This document shows positions 1 through 8,225 of a stretch of 8,509 nucleotides of DNA, piece after piece. Made by a program: the position numbers and the translations under genes. Location: IMG/VR virus record IMGVR_UViG_648276647_000011, one strand, 5' to 3'. This DNA is from a virus. Lineage: Duplodnaviria > Heunggongvirae > Uroviricota > Caudoviricetes. Each line of letters opens with the position of its first letter. Positions within the stretch are counted from its first letter, which is position 1. The notes beneath the pieces were generated by a model. That model saw nothing but the letters and a program-made list of their open reading frames with translations, had not been told where the DNA came from and did not search any database.

Positions 1-1053
1 ATGACGTTACCACTAAGAGATTACTATCCTATTGAGCGCGCGGCAAAGTTATTAGACTGCGATATTGACGATCTTATTCATTGGGCTGTGACAGGCTGCA
101 TTCGTATTTGTATAAAAATTGAATCTGCATATGGAGTATTAAATATCCCAGATGAAAAAGATGTGGTTAATTTCGATTGTCTGCGTAAGTTTATGGATTC
201 AGAACCGTGTAAATCACGGTTATCTGACCTTGATGCCATTTCAGAAAGGGCGGCAGAACACCATGGTTTTAATTATATAAAAACCAAGTCGAGAATTATA
301 TTTGATTCAATGTGCGAATCTCTAAGTCATTCATATGTAGCGCCCAAATTTGGTGACATGGCAATTGATACTGCATTTGCTTTGTTAAATTATTATAACA
401 GGGGGTTATATTATGGGGAGAATTATCACATATATAGTGTATATCGAATAGCAACGGATGAAAGAGCTGTGGCAGTTGTGCCACCAGTATTTAAAGATAT
501 TCAAGAAAAATACCATAAGTATTTTGTTGAAATAGGCGGCATTTTCGCTTTGGGGGGAAGTTTTTTTGCCAACTATGATTTTAATAAGAAGTTTAAAGCC
601 AACCGAATAATTAATAGCAATATTATAATTGCTTCTGACGTTGATATACATATAGGACTAATTGTTACTGAGGATGTTTCTTTTGATATTGGTGATTTAT
701 ATATCTTAAAGAATGATTTTTTAAAAATACAAAATGCTACAAACTCCAATAGCGAGTTAAGAAAAGATTATGTTAATCCATTGGCAGACACTTTATATTT
801 GTGTGCGGGTAACAATATATTAAGTTCTGAGGATGGAGAGAAAGATATATGCACCAATAAAAACAATATAGAACGATTATCTAAAACAATGAAGGATTTT
901 TTTCGTGCGATGCTTGTTATTCATTATAAAGAACTCGAAAACAATCCGGTAAAACTTGCTGATATATTGACCGCGGAAGCAAGAGAGGCAGGACTCAATA
1001 TGCGCTTTGATAAAAGTACTATATCAAGATGGATTAAGGCATCATCTCAGTAA
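1..1053 (+). CDS. hypothetical protein, 350 aa; AT-rich accessory gene with HTH-like segments at both termini and a possible nucleotidyltransferase-like GS...SDxDh motif in the middle (unverified)
   Basis: Uninterrupted ATG-to-TAA frame 1-1053. The ATG is the first base of the window, so the upstream RBS and promoter cannot be inspected. By eye the DNA is much more AT-rich than genes from 1149 onward. N-terminal YPIERAAKLLDCDIDDLIHW and C-terminal KSTISRWIK resemble helix-turn-helix segments. Residues 185-218 read GGSFF...IIIASDVDIHI (nt 553-654). No family recognised. Confidence 0.6.
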   Translation: MTLPLRDYYPIERAAKLLDCDIDDLIHWAVTGCIRICIKIESAYGVLNIPDEKDVVNFDCLRKFMDSEPCKSRLSDLDAISERAAEHHGFNYIKTKSRIIFDSMCESLSHSYVAPKFGDMAIDTAFALLNYYNRGLYYGENYHIYSVYRIATDERAVAVVPPVFKDIQEKYHKYFVEIGGIFALGGSFFANYDFNKKFKANRIINSNIIIASDVDIHIGLIVTEDVSFDIGDLYILKNDFLKIQNATNSNSELRKDYVNPLADTLYLCAGNNILSSEDGEKDICTNKNNIERLSKTMKDFFRAMLVIHYKELENNPVKLADILTAEAREAGLNMRFDKSTISRWIKASSQ

Positions 1054-1148: not shown

Positions 1149-1469
1149 ATGACTCAATCCGCATTCATTCCACCAACTCCAGAACAGCGTCGCACCATAC
1201 TCGCCGAGTATGGTTTTGACTGCGAAGAACGCATCAGGGAAGAGAAGTGTAAAAAGATGACCACGCTTTCACGCTCCCGGCGCTGGGAACTGGAGAAGAT
1301 CGGCGCTTTTCCTCCCCGTCACTCTTTGGGGCGTTGTTCATGTACCTGGCTGTTAAGTGATGTTTTGTGGTGGCTACGTAATCCGCCAGTTATTGCCAAA
1401 GTGAATAACCCGTACGAAAACGCCAAAAAGAAAAGGGAGAGAGAATCCGGTAGCGCCAGAGTTGAATAA
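1149..1469 (+). CDS. alpA: AlpA-family phage regulatory protein (Vis/excisionase-like), 106 aa, with a ~35-aa N-terminal extension
   Basis: ATG at 1149 preceded by SD-like GGGGGA (1140-1145). C-terminal half LSRSRRWELEKIGAFPPRHSLGRCSCTWLLSDVLWWL matches the AlpA pattern (LSRST.Y.L...G.FP.P..LG.R.V.W..SEV..W) from memory. An internal ATG at 1257 is an alternative start. Confidence 0.7.
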   Translation: MTQSAFIPPTPEQRRTILAEYGFDCEERIREEKCKKMTTLSRSRRWELEKIGAFPPRHSLGRCSCTWLLSDVLWWLRNPPVIAKVNNPYENAKKKRERESGSARVE

Positions 1470-1660: not shown

Positions 1661-2016
1661 AAATGATTATGGCTTTTTTACTCTTTAAAATCAATCACTC
1701 AGCGCAAGTGAGCAAAAATAATGTGCAATATTGCTTGACTCGCTTTTTTGTCATGGCGTATCGTTTGCCCGCACCTCATAAAGCGGGTGCCGGGTTTAGC
1801 AGCCTGAACAATCAAGCGGGTAGCCGCTATATTTCCGTAATGCGGTTTTTTTGTGCCCGTAATTCCACCCTACCCCGTATTATGGCGGGGCGTAATGGGG
1901 GAGCCTTTGCGCTCGCTGGTTCCTTGATTGCCAGTCTGCTAACCCTGTTACGTCCCGCCACCATGTTTAGCAGCGTGCTGGCGAGACTCCGTAAACTTAA
2001 TCAAGGAGCCGCCAAA

Positions 2017-2838: not shown

Positions 2839-3138
2839 ATGTCTGAAAATCAGAATATCCGCAATATATACAAAAAAGAATACGCTGGTTTTTTCACGGA
2901 AGATTCCATTGAGAATCTTGAAGATGTAATAAATGTTATTGCACTCCTTTCAGCATTGACAGGTGAAATTAATACCAGTGAGAGAATGCCAGTGCAAATT
3001 AATGAAATGGAATCATTAACTAACATTCTTTATCGGGAATTACGAGCGATTAAGTCAGGAATGCATACTTCTGGCGGAATTTTTTCATGGCATAGTGCTG
3101 AAACCGCCGGGATTGCCAAAGCAATAAGTAACGAGTAA
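2839..3138 (+). CDS. hypothetical protein, 99 aa; AT-rich orphan gene immediately upstream of the primase
   Basis: ATG 2839 preceded by GGGGAG (2825-2830). Separated from the upstream operon by an AT-rich 67-bp spacer and followed by a hairpin terminator. Composition is clearly lower G+C than flanking genes. No recognisable motif. Confidence 0.6.
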   Translation: MSENQNIRNIYKKEYAGFFTEDSIENLEDVINVIALLSALTGEINTSERMPVQINEMESLTNILYRELRAIKSGMHTSGGIFSWHSAETAGIAKAISNE

Positions 3139-3140
3139 TT

Positions 3141-3180
3141 AATAAAAACCCCACTGCAAAAGGTGCAGTGGGGTGGAGTT
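3141..3180. terminator. bidirectional-looking intrinsic terminator; stronger in minus orientation
   Basis: 10-bp GC-rich stem CCCCACTGCA (3149-3158) / TGCAGTGGGG (3164-3173) with loop AAAGG. On the minus strand it is followed directly by TTTTTATT (reverse complement of 3141-3148). On the + strand the T-run (3176-3179) is separated from the stem and interrupted. Confidence 0.55.
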
Positions 3181-3186
3181 TTATAT

Positions 3187-5856
3187 ATGAAATCTGACAT
3201 CAGAAAAGAGATTATTAACCGTCTTATCCGTGATTACAACTTCAAAGAAGAAAATAACTACCTCCGGTATGGTGTTTGTCCGCAATGTGGAAAGAAAGAG
3301 TTGTTTACCAGCCTTGAAAGGCCGTACATCGTACACTGTGGGCGCGAAAATAAATGCGGTACAGACCTGCTGACCAAAGAACTTTACCCGGATGTGTTTT
3401 CATCATGGTCAGATCGTTATATCAGCACGAAAGACGAGCCATATGCAGCGGCGGCAGCTTATCTTCAGGAAGCGCGCAATATTGCTGTGGGGCCACTGAA
3501 GGGCGCATTTACTCAGGAGCGATACCAGGACAAGGAAAACGGCGAACAGGCCGCTACTGTGCGTTTTACGCTGGCTGACGGCGTGTGGTGGGAGCGCATC
3601 ATAGACCGGCCGGAACGTTTCGCGCGTAAGGCGAATTTTTCCGGCAGCTACAAGGGGTTGTGGTGGGCTTATCCGGGAGCTGATTTAAGCAAGGCCAACG
3701 AAATCTGGATTTGTGAGGGCATCTTTGATGCCATCAGCCTTAACCAGAATGGCATTGCAGCCGTTTCTGTCATGTCTGCCGTGAATTATCCTGATAAGGC
3801 GCTGGAAGAACTGGCAAAGCTGTGCGGAGATAATCCCCGTCCGGTTATTGTGTGGGCGCTGGATAACGGGCGTGCGGGTGAGCGTTACGCGAAAAAACAT
3901 TCAGAACGCAGCGCCGAAGATGGCTGGAGAACGGCGGCGGCGTTACCGGGTAAAAACAGCAATAAACGCGACTGGAATGATTTACACGTCGCCGGAAAGC
4001 TGCGTGGCCATGATGTGAAAAGATACCGTCATTACGGTGATTTATTGCTGGCGAAATCTCCGAGAGATAAGGCGCTGATAATATTTTCCTTTCGTGAGCG
4101 GAAGGAATTTCATTTTACTTTTGATAACCGTGTTTTCTGGTTCAAACTGGACATTGAGCGCTATATGAAGGCTGTTGAGCGTGCCAAGAATGAGCGAAAT
4201 GTTGATGAGGATGAAGCGCGCAAAATTGCACTTAAGGAATCTGGTGCAGTAAAAGAAATCGCAAACTGTAACCCAGCGCCGCTTTATTACATTCGAAATA
4301 ATGACACGGATGAAGCATGGTATTACTTCCGTGTTACGTTCCCGGATGGTGCTACGGTGAAAAACACCTTTACATCAGGACAATTAACATCCTCATCTGA
4401 ATTTAAAAAACGCCTGTTACACGTGGCAAAAGGCGGTATTTATACTGGAACGACTACGCAGCTTGACGCATTAATAAAAAATGACCTTCCCGCAATAAAA
4501 GAGGTTATTGGTCAGGATTTTATCGGATACAACAAGGCGATTGGGGCATGGCTGTTTAATGATATTGCTGTTTACAAGGGAAAAACTTATGAAATCAATG
4601 ACGAGGATTATTTTGAAATTGATGGCATAAACGCAAAACCATTAAGCGAAAAACCCACATTACAGATTAACTACAAAAAACCGGATGAGTTTACAGAGTC
4701 TTGGGTGGAAGATCTCTGGCTGGCTTTTGGTGAAAAGGGAATTATTACCCTGGCTTTCTGGTTGGGCTCCCTGTTCAGCGAACAAATCCGAGATAAAGAA
4801 GAATCCTTCCCCTTCCTTGAAGTCACCGGGGAGCCCGGAACGGGTAAATCAACATTGATTGATTTTTGCTGGCGGTTGTGCGGTCGTGACAACTATGAAG
4901 GCGTTGATCCAACCAAAGGATCAGAGGCGGGCTGGAAGCGTACCTTTGGACAGGTCGCCGGATTACCTGTTGTTCTGATTGAAGCGGACCGGGGAGACAA
5001 TGCGCAAAAAAGAGGTGCGTTTGACTTCGATAACCTGAAAAGTCTCTATAACGGCGGTGGTATCGGCGTTCGTGGTGTTAAGGCCAACAATAACAACACC
5101 TATGACCCGGATTTTAAGGGCGCTATCGTGATTGCGCAGAATGCGCGGGTAAACGCCTCTCCGGCAATTATTGAGCGCCTGATACGTATATACACCGATA
5201 AAAAACGCCATTCACCTGATACCCGCCTGGCGGCGAGACGGCTGGAACTTTACCCCGTCGAGAAGGTATCTGGGTTTATTCACCGAGCGGTAAGTCAGGA
5301 ACGGGCGATTATGCAAACGTTCCTAGAAGTATCTCCAGCTGAAACGGAACGCCTTTGCGGATGCGAAAATATTCGCCATCCCCGCATCGCTAAAAATCAC
5401 GCACAACTTATCGCGCTGGTCAGAGCGCTGAAATGCGTTATTGATATCCCGGATGAATGGCTTGATGCCACATGTCTGGAACTGGAACAAATGGCAACAG
5501 CGCAGGTTAAAGCGGCGGCGGCTGATTTACCGGAAGTGATGGAGTTCTGGGAGGCGTTCGACTTCCTGGACGGCATAACAAAATACGGTGTAAACCACTA
5601 CGGCAAGGGATGCCGTGAGGGGATTGCTATCAGTATTCCGCAACTGGCACAGGCTGCCGCCATTCACCGCGTGGAGATCCGAACTGACCGCGAAATGATT
5701 GAGTTGCTCGGAGCCGGACGTTCCCGACCTTTGACAGGCCGCAAAACCATTCGTAGTGAGGTGTCCAGACAGGCAAACGCCGGAAGAGGGGTCGCCGAGG
5801 CCAGAGAGCCGGAAGTACTGAAATGCCGGATATTCAGTTACAAGGAGGGGCGCTAA
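3187..5856 (+). CDS. phage/plasmid primase-helicase of the P4 alpha type: N-terminal zinc ribbon, TOPRIM primase, P-loop NTPase (helicase)
   Basis: Long ORF. Cys cluster CPQCG...HCGRENKCG (nt 3277-3360). TOPRIM-like ICEGIFDA (nt 3709-3732) and LDNGRAGE. Walker A GEPGTGKST (nt 4828-4854). ATG 3187 with SD GGTGGAG (3172-3178) is preferred over the track GTG at 3163, which lies inside the terminator stem. Confidence 0.88.
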   Translation: MKSDIRKEIINRLIRDYNFKEENNYLRYGVCPQCGKKELFTSLERPYIVHCGRENKCGTDLLTKELYPDVFSSWSDRYISTKDEPYAAAAAYLQEARNIAVGPLKGAFTQERYQDKENGEQAATVRFTLADGVWWERIIDRPERFARKANFSGSYKGLWWAYPGADLSKANEIWICEGIFDAISLNQNGIAAVSVMSAVNYPDKALEELAKLCGDNPRPVIVWALDNGRAGERYAKKHSERSAEDGWRTAAALPGKNSNKRDWNDLHVAGKLRGHDVKRYRHYGDLLLAKSPRDKALIIFSFRERKEFHFTFDNRVFWFKLDIERYMKAVERAKNERNVDEDEARKIALKESGAVKEIANCNPAPLYYIRNNDTDEAWYYFRVTFPDGATVKNTFTSGQLTSSSEFKKRLLHVAKGGIYTGTTTQLDALIKNDLPAIKEVIGQDFIGYNKAIGAWLFNDIAVYKGKTYEINDEDYFEIDGINAKPLSEKPTLQINYKKPDEFTESWVEDLWLAFGEKGIITLAFWLGSLFSEQIRDKEESFPFLEVTGEPGTGKSTLIDFCWRLCGRDNYEGVDPTKGSEAGWKRTFGQVAGLPVVLIEADRGDNAQKRGAFDFDNLKSLYNGGGIGVRGVKANNNNTYDPDFKGAIVIAQNARVNASPAIIERLIRIYTDKKRHSPDTRLAARRLELYPVEKVSGFIHRAVSQERAIMQTFLEVSPAETERLCGCENIRHPRIAKNHAQLIALVRALKCVIDIPDEWLDATCLELEQMATAQVKAAAADLPEVMEFWEAFDFLDGITKYGVNHYGKGCREGIAISIPQLAQAAAIHRVEIRTDREMIELLGAGRSRPLTGRKTIRSEVSRQANAGRGVAEAREPEVLKCRIFSYKEGR

Positions 5857-5858
5857 AC

Positions 5859-6862
5859 ATGCCGATCAGAAAGATGCATGATGGGCGGTGGCTGCTCGAT
5901 ATCAGGCCATGCGGACGTAAAGGGAAGCGCATCAGAAGAATATTTGACAAAAAATCGATAGCTACAGCAACTGAACGGTACATCATAGCGAACGCCGAAA
6001 AGCGCGAGTTTATACAGGGCTATCGTGACCGGAGAACGCTTAGCGATTTACTGGAATTGTGGTGGGTCTATCACGGTCAGCACAGGCGAAAGGCAAACAC
6101 GGATAAACAGCAGCTTGGCAAAATTATTAATGAGCTTGGAGCTGACATGTTTGCGGTGGAACTCGACAAATTAAAAATCATTGCATGGCGATCGCAGAAA
6201 ATTGCAGAAGGATTAAAGCCGTCCTCAGCAAACAGATACATGAACAGATTATCGGGGATGTTTACAGCCCTGAAAAAGATCGGTTTGTGGGATGCAGAGC
6301 ATCCGGTTCGTGGTATTCCTGTTCTTTATGTAAAGCAGCGGGAAATGGCCTTTTTATCAAAAAACGAGGTCACATTGTTGCTTGACGGGCTGAATGGAGA
6401 TCAACGAAGGGTTGCGCTCTTGTGTCTTTGTACCGGAGCCCGCTGGAGTGAGGCCAGCAGATTGTATGGAGAGCAAATAGTTCATAACAGAATAACGTTT
6501 CTGGAAACCAAAAACGGTAGAAAAAGAACGGTGCCTGTGTCGCAGGAAATATGCGATGCCGTAAAAACAAAAGAAACCGGGCGACTGTTTGATGTGAAGT
6601 ACAGAGAGTTTTGCCGGGCATTAAAAAAATAAAACCCGATTTACCGAGGGGGCAGGCTGCGCATGTATTGCGGCATACATTCGCCAGTCACTTTGTGATG
6701 AACGGTGGCAACATTCTTGCGCTACAAAAAATCCTTGGGCATGCGACAATTCAGCAGACTATGGCATACGCACATTTTGCACCGGATTATCTGGCAGATG
6801 CCATGAGATTTAACCCGGTAGCCAACATAGTGATCACCGAAGAAAAAGAGCCAGCAGAGTAA
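5859..6862 (+). pseudogene. int: tyrosine integrase, P2 Int-like, interrupted by a single-base frameshift at an A7 run (6623-6629); may be a pseudogene, a sequencing error or a recoding site
   Basis: Two consecutive ORFs (frame 0 5859-6632; frame 2 6611-6862) that together align without gaps to recalled P2 integrase (e.g. KPSSANRYMNRLSGMFTAL, CTGARWSEASRL, IKPDLPRGQAAHVLRHTFASHF, QTMAYAHFAPDY). Box II HxxR and the presumed catalytic Tyr (nt 6767-6769) are only in the second frame. ATG 5859 lies 2 nt after the primase stop, with AGGAGGGG at 5843-5850. Confidence 0.85.
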
Positions 6863-6891
6863 CCCGCAGAACGCTACATTCACAGCAAAAG

Positions 6892-6918
6892 AGGTCAGTT
6901 TCCCGCTGACCTTTTTTG
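6892..6918 (+). terminator. rho-independent terminator downstream of int
   Basis: Stem AGGTCAG (6892-6898), 7-nt loop, stem CTGACCT (6906-6912), followed by T-run 6912-6917. Confidence 0.75.
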
Positions 6919-7110
6919 TTGGCCAGAACCAACGGTAACAGCAATGCAATGGTGGCCATATTGCAGTGGTGCCGCCATCAATTTTTTGCTCCCCCTGATT
7001 ATCAGAAAGAGTCAAACAGTGGTGAGATACATTTCAATCACAGAGAGTTAATGAAAGTGAGACAGAGTGAGTGAGTTTAATTAACATTTTAAAGGGTCGC
7101 GCTAAAGTTT

Positions 7111-7430
7111 GGGGGGGGATGCGCAAAGCGGTTACAACGGTTACAAATTTAAAATTGCTTATTTTTGTATTATATATCAATATATTATAACTGGTCCGAT
7201 GAGTTACAATAGCGGTTACAACGCGGTTACATGTAACCGTTTTGTTAGGTTACAGGCGGTTACAGGTTAAGTTTTTAATTGATTGATAATAAAGTGCTTT
7301 TTGAAACCTGTAACCGTTGTAACCGCAGTGTAACCGCAAAGCGGTTACAAACAATATCCATTAAAATCATGTTTTTAAGTGGTGTTTTTGACTGTTGTAA
7401 CCGTTGTAACCGCTTTGCGCACCCCCCACC
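7111..7430. repeat. iteron array (heptamer GGTTACA/TGTAACC, 13 exact copies plus 1 variant) bounded by 36-bp inverted repeats; putative replication origin
   Basis: Inverted repeats 7111-7146 and 7395-7430 are 34/36 identical as reverse complements. GGTTACA at 7130, 7139, 7214, 7225, 7248, 7258, 7343 and AGTTACA at 7202. TGTAACC at 7232, 7309, 7318, 7329, 7396, 7405. Perfect palindrome GGTTACATGTAACC at 7225-7238. Hairpin TGTAACCGC-AAA-GCGGTTACA at 7329-7349. AT-rich blocks at 7147-7200, 7265-7308 and 7350-7390. Confidence 0.6.
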
Positions 7431-7653
7431 GGATTATGAGGCAGAGCCCCAAAACAACTGGTCTAACCTATAACAAAAATGCAACATCAATCATTGATTT
7501 TTTGGGGCTGTCAGTCACGGGGAGTTGCCCTGTTGTTTGGCAGAAAAATGAAGTATGTACATGCGCGGCGGGGATGGTAAAAAACGTAATACACGCGGCG
7601 CAGTTGCCATAAAAAATTTCTCAAAAGCACTCTTTTTGACGCTATTGTTCATC

Positions 7654-7680
7654 TGCACAAAAGTGCACAAATTTGCACAA
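7654..7680. promoter_or_regulatory. three direct TGCACAA repeats at exact 10-bp phasing; candidate operator or activator-binding array
   Basis: TGCACAA at 7654-7660, 7664-7670 and 7674-7680, so one helical turn apart. A fourth copy lies at 7746-7752. A 10-bp perfect palindrome CCAGTACTGG sits nearby at 7711-7720. Confidence 0.4.
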
Positions 7681-7973
7681 TTTTTTAGAGTAACTTTTTG
7701 CCCATCCGGCCCAGTACTGGCGCGCCCGGAGGGCGATTTCGTGCGTGCACAAAAAACGGTGAGTTTTTCGCGCGCAGGTGACGGGGGAACAGCACGCGTT
7801 TCAGGGGGGTAAATTACATTTTCGCTAAAGACTGCGGGAATGCCCGACCGGGTTAGTTTTATCGCCAGCCAGAGCCGTTCTTACGGCAAGAGAGAACTGA
7901 TACGGGGAATGTGACGAGTGAGCATGGGAACGGTGCGCCTGTGCGTAATACGCGGCGACTGCTGCGGGTTTAT

Positions 7974-8042: not shown

Positions 8043-8225
8043 ATGTCTTTCCCTTGCCCGGCCTGTGGCGCTTCAGCCCGCACCCGTGGTCGTTCGTTGG
8101 AAGAACACGAACAAAACATCTACAGAACGTATTACCAGTGCAATAATATTGAGTGTGGGGCTTGTTTTTGTACGCTTGAGTCGTTTGTACGCATTACTAA
8201 GCGCAGGAAGTCGAAAACTTCATAG
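8043..8225 (+). CDS. ogr: Ogr/Delta-family zinc-finger transcription activator (P2 Ogr / P4 Delta-like), 60 aa, single domain
   Basis: ATG 8043 with strong SD. Cys4 pattern C5-X2-C8-X24-C33-X4-C38. ARTRGRS...YRTYYQCNNIEC...FCTLES resembles P2 Ogr (ARTSRYI...ERYHQCQNVNC...F.TYES) from memory. Confidence 0.8.
   Translation: MSFPCPACGASARTRGRSLEEHEQNIYRTYYQCNNIECGACFCTLESFVRITKRRKSKTS

Follow-up and report, generated by a model that had tools for sequence, protein, structure and literature searches.

In the phage satellite P4, alpha lies on one strand with int, and between them come a terminator, crr and attP, roughly the layout that an earlier note on the DNA analysed here had attributed to it. 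In P2-like phages (Peduoviridae, such as P2, P88/Xuanwuvirus and ESSI2_ev239), int lies directly downstream of the C repressor gene in the same orientation, with cox and the replication genes divergent from it; int overlaps its own arm repeats, and Int covaries with Cox. The integrase of the PLE of Vibrio cholerae uses a helper-encoded directionality factor. Phage-inducible chromosomal islands (PICIs) and capsid-forming PICIs (cfPICIs) bring together an integrase, an AlpA-type regulator, a primase/replicase and capsid-related genes in one small island (PMC10085698). We analysed an 8,509-nt stretch from the Caudoviricetes record IMGVR_UViG_648276647_000011 of IMG/VR (the whole stretch is called the window below), which is the core of an integrated island resembling a satellite of P2-like phages, and in which the gene for a P2-family integrase (Int#2) directly follows that for a primase-helicase.

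Int#2 is the second integrase of this island, and its position differs from what is seen in each of these systems. The single integrase gene of P4 lies beyond the terminator, crr and attP, whereas the island places its P2-family integrase gene before the terminator. In P2-like phages int belongs with C and its arm repeats, whereas in the island it follows the primase, encodes an island-specific C-terminal tail and has no attP, C or cox nearby. The PLE shares with the island a cross-talk between satellite and helper site-specific recombination machineries; there, however, a helper protein directs the integrase that the satellite itself uses, while the island carries a copy of a helper-type integrase in addition to a separate integrase of its own (Int#1). 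PICIs and cfPICIs share with the island the combination of genes listed above, but a second integrase is not part of those models.

The int start codon lies 2 nt past the primase stop codon, with its Shine–Dalgarno (SD) sequence, AAGGAGG, within the last primase codons (Table 1), exactly as the earlier note had read it. Among 32 related loci assembled from complete genomes, IMG/VR, metagenomes and read-archive assemblies, an int open reading frame (ORF) directly follows the primase in every case; 28 of the 32 keep the 2-nt spacing with AAGGAG, the other four have a 7-nt gap, and a more distant sister island has 22 nt between the primase stop and int. When complete Escherichia coli genomes were searched with a junction probe, the primase 3' end was followed by an integrase in ~63 of 5,426, whereas a species-level genome scan for int found the tandem in one further species representative only (Escherichia sp. 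MOD1-EC7003), all other int matches in that scan lying in ordinary P2-like prophage contexts. The arrangement is thus recurrent, as it would be in an already characterised element family, but no paper characterising it was found. A survey of P4-like elements reported an integrase next to alpha only in rare, unrelated cases.

Between the two genes there is no room for transcription signals, an intrinsic terminator directly follows the int stop and is kept next to all int alleles, and the C4 and isrK RNAs lie upstream on the same strand; these three features support co-transcription of primase and Int#2, and we infer that the C4/isrK locus and the terminator bound one RNA-controlled operon. The earlier note's proposal that integrase synthesis is tied to the replication gene was supported, and Int#2 is probably translationally coupled to the primase. 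It is well supported that Int#2 is under selection and forms the co-transcribed last piece of the replication operon.

The description of Int#2 as a P2-type integrase was borne out. It contains Int_N (PF24624) and catalytic (PF00589) domains, and in the PDB it matches 5c6k (E = 8e-80) and 5dor (E = 1e-57), both of which we take to be P2 integrase, as well as the HP1 integrase 1aih (E = 4e-48). The allele carried by the window, allele A, is 82% identical to integrases of P88-type (Xuanwuvirus) phages and 51% identical to P2 Int. Int_N and catalytic domains and the catalytic residues are shared with P2-like phages, at 82–86% identity for alleles A and B. All 29 complete copies of Int#2 in the relatives are intact (333–334 aa), and the catalytic R, K, HxxR, H and Y are kept in all 29 and in all four alleles described below.

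The copy in the window, however, is not the single int ORF that had been read there. The stretch from its start codon to the final stop measures 1004 nt; frame 0 ends after 257 codons, and the HxxR...H...Y part is encoded in the −1 frame (Table 1). The window has seven adenines where L001, L002 and L006 have eight, which is the sole indel across int and is accompanied by five substitutions. This copy is therefore inactivated by a 1-nt deletion, or contains a misread base, unless slippage on the A-run, by the ribosome or during transcription, rescues it. In frame, the site is A_AAA_AAA with TAA directly after it; such a heptamer beside a stop codon is a classic −1 slippery site, and slipping by −1 at A7 would restore the exact wild-type integrase. 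The intact allele, with A8, also has a slippage-prone homopolymer, and the P88 phage gene has no A-run there.

Matches to the whole window were found in 35 complete E. coli genomes (at least 80% coverage; identity up to 98.3%), in which the window forms the centre of a ~13-kb island between gcd and hpt. From the left, this island encodes Int#1 (399 aa, Arm-DNA-bind_3 type), ending 16 nt left of the window start, then a 350-aa protein, AlpA, an 'Icd-like' ORF and small ORFs; these are followed by hyp9x (99 aa), the primase, Int#2 (334 aa) and ~1.1 kb of mostly non-coding DNA, and then by Ogr/Delta, a 235-aa protein, a P2-family capsid homologue (423 aa) and MazEF. Direct repeats flank the island and duplicate the first codons (5' end) of hpt. 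Together with pairs of GTGTATCAAT, the arm-type repeats for Int#1 found at both island ends, they identify Int#1 as the island's own integrase, and it is strongly supported that Int#1, which is unrelated to Int#2, inserts the island at the 5' end of hpt. The att repeats that the earlier note had suggested looking for thus exist, but they fit Int#1 rather than Int#2. The AlpA-family regulator is presumably the partner of Int#1.

Int#2, by contrast, is well supported as a swappable cassette that lacks an att site of its own and is not the island's integrase. At least four alleles (A–D) occur, 50–60% identical to one another. Identity between islands drops ~10–40 nt into int and recovers ~60 nt before its end, so that allele differences are confined to the gene body (~aa 14–321). 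Beyond it, all alleles share the island-specific tail (NPVAN...KEPAE) where phage genes encode their arm repeats; homology to phage int ends at ~aa 321, at the point where these repeats start. Allele B shares 85.7% identity with the integrases of a different group of P2-like phages from E. coli; ~340 genomes carry prophage int genes with 80–90% DNA identity to allele B over the exchanged stretch only. Within alleles, dN/dS (the ratio of non-synonymous to synonymous divergence) is 0.06–0.10 at dS ~0.5, indicating purifying selection. All islands seen lie at Int#1-type sites whatever their Int#2 allele, a given Int#2 allele can be found at several chromosomal sites accompanied by different Int#1, and none of the surveyed allele-B islands lies beside dmsA, where a B-type phage record ends. 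P88 and 569R5 phages carry pairs of TGTCCAC or TGTCCAT where int ends (3'); nowhere in allele A or allele B islands were arm motifs of the A or B type found in pairs, and a search of the island for matches to the P88 attP core or arms returned nothing significant.

Two candidate traces of an Int#2 site were rejected. The octamers downstream of int include TGTAACCGCAGTGTAACCGC, which resembles the P88 arm pair TGTCCACGCAGTGTCCACG, but the octamer variant tracks the primase C-terminal type and not the int allele, so they are not Int#2 arm repeats. Remnants of an int 3' end resembling 'HFAPDY' at ~6975–7010 and 7420–7446 had no tblastn match, and their 11-mer seed is expected ~20 times by chance in 13 kb. 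In three loci from other species (L024, L050 and L053), fragments of the int 3' end (~aa 250–324) are repeated downstream of a P2-family int in several marine gammaproteobacteria, which suggests serial insertions at one att site.

In whole-island alignments, the only strongly divergent segments are Int#2 and hyp9x, an acidic protein (pI 4.7–6.1; 94–123 aa across the family), and no island segment except hyp9x covaries with the int allele. Each hyp9x cluster is paired with one Int#2 allele across 10 distinct haplotypes (Mantel r = 0.67, p = 0.001), while the primase, encoded between them, correlates with neither. A linkage between C repressor and Int in the helper, considered as the source of this covariation, was weakened as an explanation: phages with 97–99% identical Int have C repressors only 47–49% identical, and in P2-like phages it is Cox, unlike C, that tracks Int. 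Searches with hyp9x gave no match in Pfam, PHROGs, NCBIfam or PADLOC and no tblastn match in phages, and a profile search of 1.8 billion representatives returned only 15 clusters (50% identity), none with Pfam domains. Homology to P4 epsilon, P4 Cnr or P88 Cox was rejected (hhalign probabilities <1%), and the AlphaFold2 model was unusable (mean predicted local distance difference test score 51). The hyp9x gene always lies just upstream of the primase, even beside a different primase family. Such a family, of DUF927 type, is found together with GTGGGAACA repeats in the sister island family. One sister island without Int#2 (L102, 1–4064) lies directly downstream of P2-like tail genes (tape measure, gpU, gpD) and so abuts a probable helper prophage.

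What Int#2 does is argued by exclusion, which leads us to infer action in trans. Our preferred reading, held tentatively, is that Int#2 acts on the att sites of a matching P2-like helper and most likely supplies Int for excision of the helper prophage. It would be made whenever the island replicates. It would meet a conflict in the helper, whose Cox would be required for excision yet would shut off Pc, the promoter of the helper's own int. P2 int is transcribed from Pc, and excision of the P2 prophage is limited by the supply of Int. That Cox represses Pc and is required for excision has been described (PMC3936717). The Int#2 allele would then set which helper types the island can manipulate. 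A little more doubtfully, Int#2 and the hypervariable hyp9x may form a specificity pair through which the satellite directly controls the integration state of a P2-like helper, whether by its excision or by keeping it locked in the chromosome.

Several observations weigh against helper excision by Int#2. The link between Int#2 and helper att sites is argued by exclusion, and the copy in the window is frameshifted. By a rough comparison, most island-bearing genomes have one int-like place only, which suggests that they usually lack a matching resident prophage. P4 makes use of a P2 prophage that stays unexcised, and helper excision therefore meets no obvious need. Allele C, when searched against the phage collection, had no close relative there (best 57%). 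Members of the sister family either lack Int#2 (L102, L103) or carry one with an in-frame stop (L100), so it is dispensable in their lifestyle, and hyp9x homologues occur there without Int#2 and are equally hypervariable, which means that hyp9x is not merely an Int#2 cofactor.

Some of the same observations would fit an opposite effect, in which Int#2 acts in trans on the att sites of the helper or of competing P2-like phages and disturbs their integration or excision, for example by blocking lysogeny or keeping the helper genome unpackageable, and so leaves capsids and tails to the island. Helper-like alleles in an island without an att site for them, maintained by purifying selection, are compatible with this, as is the usual absence of a co-resident matching prophage, which would fit exclusion. 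P2 terminase packages circular monomers, so an unexcised helper could not compete for packaging. Nevertheless, a wild-type-like, catalytically complete integrase is no obvious inhibitor, and no PADLOC defence family was matched; we regard antagonism as unlikely. Somewhat less likely again is action on the island's own DNA, with Int#2 resolving replication multimers to monomer circles or aiding replication, its site lying in the conserved flanks or in the origin. Such a role would explain the coupling of Int#2 to the primase, with which it is co-expressed and between which and the origin its gene lies, and monomerisation would pay off if P2-type packaging uses monomeric circles. But alleles 50–60% identical sit beside near-identical flanks with no cis segment that covaries with them, the iterons covary with the primase instead, the arm repeats that P2-family integrases normally need are missing, and sister islands manage without the gene.

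The inactivated copies raise the question of whether Int#2 has any current role. It could be a passenger left by recombination with P2-like prophages, persisting by linkage and now decaying in the window, as the frameshift there, the in-frame stop in L100 and the absence of the gene from L102 and L103 might indicate. The intact state of all 29 complete copies, the low dN/dS within island lineages, a junction conserved across four alleles and repeated allele replacement at exactly the same position all oppose this, and make it improbable. Least probable of all, and largely refuted, is the interpretation offered by the earlier note, namely an integration module borrowed from the helper that inserts the island at a P2-type attB. 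A complete P2-family integrase is indeed present in relatives, yet only the int reading frame was acquired, with neither phage arm repeats nor a core site, and insertion is accounted for by Int#1, whose att and arm repeats lie at the island ends and whose sites the islands occupy irrespective of Int#2 allele. The excision of a P2-like helper in trans remains the reading we prefer.

The primase-helicase had been labelled P4-alpha-type, and this label did not hold. P4 alpha carries Pox_D5, D5_N and Zn_Ribbon_Prim, none of which was found in the window primase at E ≤ 0.01; blastp against P4 alpha gave only motif-level matches (27 aa at the P-loop, E = 2e-4; 95 aa of Toprim, E = 0.003), and P4 is not among the 41 tblastn phage matches of the primase. 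It is thus organised like alpha yet lies outside the alpha family. The phage relatives found by tblastn are P2-like (Peduoviridae) primases, namely those of ESSI2_ev239 (51.5%), RSY1 and its relatives (~44–45%) and phiCTX (41%), and by sequence the protein belongs to the phiCTX/ESSI2-type primases of P2-like phages; some Peduoviridae therefore share a primase of the island's type. It comprises an N-terminal Cys motif, a Toprim domain (~aa 172–270), a P-loop (GEPGTGKS) and a variable C-terminal region of ~240 aa. Toprim matches span aa 180–277 (Toprim_2, E = 1.5e-12; Toprim_3, E = 7.5e-9), a sub-threshold DUF5906 match spans the P-loop region, and the match to phrog_1139 has E = 6.6e-299. RefSeq relatives start at ATG 3187, while the longest ORF begins with GTG at 3163.

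Downstream of the terminator lies a probable origin of replication (Table 1). Its CGGTTACA octamers occur 12 times exactly at 7129–7412 (14 with near-copies) against 0.28 expected by chance. The octamer variant covaries fully with the type of the C-terminal 240 aa of the primase (type I with CGGTTACA, type II with RGGTTACA) and is independent of the Int#2 allele; a third type, in L069, is accompanied by neither variant. In P4 alpha, whose domain order we used for comparison, the origin reader is C-terminal, and by analogy and from this covariation the octamers are likely to be origin iterons read by the primase C-terminal domain, a region that had no PDB match by sequence. The 36-nt inverted repeat bounding the region has a G8 run (7111–7118) and a C6 run (7421–7426) at its outer ends, and the G-run at this boundary is G8 or G9 depending on the island.

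Table 1. Positions of features in the 8,509-nt window, with the evidence or remark for each
Feature	Position	Strand	Evidence or remark
AlpA-family regulator/excisionase	1149..1469	+	Pfam Phage_AlpA, phrog_2790
isrK-type small RNA	1771..1852	+	Rfam RF01394, 52.1 bits (gathering score 50)
C4 antisense RNA	1878..1965	+	Rfam RF01695, 74.7 bits (gathering score 45), E = 1.3e-13, full-length
hyp9x, acidic 99-aa protein with conserved ends and hypervariable middle	2839..3138	+	Alignment; allele tracks Int#2 allele
11-bp perfect GC-rich hairpin between hyp9x and primase start	3148..3174	+	dG −21.7 kcal/mol, z = −5.1
Primase-helicase, 889 aa	3187..5856	+	Pfam Toprim_2/3, sub-threshold DUF5906, phrog_1139
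Junction: SD AAGGAGG 5842–5848, primase TAA 5854–5856, 2-nt spacer, int ATG 5859–5861	5842..5861	+	Read directly
Int#2 allele A, 5' part, frame 0 (Int_N and first half of catalytic domain)	5859..6632	+	Premature TAA 6630–6632
A7 homopolymer, site of 1-nt deletion	6623..6629	+	A8 in relatives
Int#2 3' part, −1 frame (HVLRHTF, LGH, catalytic Tyr; stop TAA 6860–6862)	6629..6862	+	ORF 6611–6862
Intrinsic terminator, GC-rich stem between A-run and T-run	6883..6921	+	dG −24.6 kcal/mol, z = −6.7
Replication origin (probable)	7111..7430	.	12 exact CGGTTACA octamers in both orientations, AT-rich DNA between them, 36-nt inverted repeat at bounds
Ogr/Delta zinc-finger activator	8043..8225	+	Pfam Ogr_Delta, E = 3.3e-11

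The C4 RNA, isrK and a sub-threshold c4-a1b1 target match at 1758–1810 lie within an ORF that NCBIfam phage_ICD_like matches and for which the RefSeq annotation is 'host cell division inhibitor Icd-like protein'; the upstream part of this ORF may be RNA genes and not coding sequence. A C4 RNA with isrK upstream of an icd-like ORF is shared with C4-type antisense-RNA immunity as found in P1/P7 immI and P4-like elements. Further downstream, the hairpin between hyp9x and the primase directly precedes the primase SD (GGAG) and could act as an attenuator or a bidirectional terminator or be a processing site.

In overall gene content the island shares with P4 an integrated state with an arm-binding-type integrase, an AlpA/Vis-type regulator and an Ogr/Delta activator. 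As in P4, where the immunity-type RNA is the CI RNA, the replication operon starts after an immunity-type RNA locus, and a large primase-helicase has a C-terminus that appears to read octamer iterons just downstream, comparable to crr. It differs from P4 in the family of its primase, in encoding its own P2-family capsid homologue and in lacking detectable Psu or epsilon. Seven components are used to define P4-like elements (int, psu, delta, sid, alpA, epsilon, alpha). The island has Int, AlpA and Ogr/Delta; neither alpha (PF03288) nor Psu nor epsilon/Ash was detected in it, and a Sid-like protein is doubtful (E = 0.06). Pox_D5 is the alpha marker by which P4-like satellites are found (PMC8628076). 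From the cfPICI gene set, only a P2-family capsid homologue and the 235-aa protein upstream of it are annotated; in contrast to PICIs and cfPICIs, the island has no genes for small or large terminase, portal or head-tail adaptor, and its capsid homologue is of the P2 family. With three of the seven P4 components and without the cfPICI set, the family appears to fall outside current satellite-finder definitions. Ogr/Delta marks the dependence of the island on P2-type late genes.

Islands were located either at gcd/hpt or beside tRNA-Arg; those beside tRNA-Arg have a P4-like Int#1 with 52% identity to P4 Int. The same island also occurs beside ompT (L092), with no tRNA called in that listing. 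The L092 copy belongs to a Shiga toxin-producing E. coli genome (CP091016.1) that holds two copies with identical gene layout, the other (L091) being beside yfdC, the tRNA-Arg site also seen in L060 and L063. The 350-aa protein (window 1–1053), encoded directly after Int#1, had no match in Pfam, PHROGs, NCBIfam or PADLOC and is swapped for other genes in the tRNA-Arg islands; it may be a cargo or defence gene. Defence-system models gave Toprim-domain or marginal matches only.

To the right of the window (L001, 23675–25656), the capsid homologue is of the P2-family major capsid type, 34–40% identical to phage gpN, with an additional N-terminal region of ~130 aa. The 235-aa protein that precedes it resembles P4 Sid weakly and collinearly (26% over 150 aa, E = 0.06). 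In other islands, the stretch between AlpA and the Icd-like ORF instead encodes a capsid homologue of 350 aa together with a 291-aa protein. The motif CGTAATAC(A/G)CG occurs four times in the right half of the island (window 7585–7595 and 7944–7954; L001 23475–23489 and 25216–25232), one copy lying ~90 nt upstream of ogr, and three TGCACAA repeats lie at window 7652–7685; the motif and the repeats could be regulatory sites.

Our literature search turned up no published account of this island family, nor of any satellite that carries a helper-type integrase. If Int#2 has no role, the finding reduces to the description of a new island family. The family is present in ~1% of complete E. coli genomes, and similar elements may be systematically missed; the covariation of iterons with the primase C-terminus also offers a ready-made system for the study of origin specificity. 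Helper regulation, capsid size and packaging are known targets of satellite hijacking. Should Int#2 act on the helper, it would add the integration state of the helper to this list, a mode of exploitation not described for P4, PICIs, cfPICIs or the PLE, and the int allele would provide a simple, testable rule for helper range.

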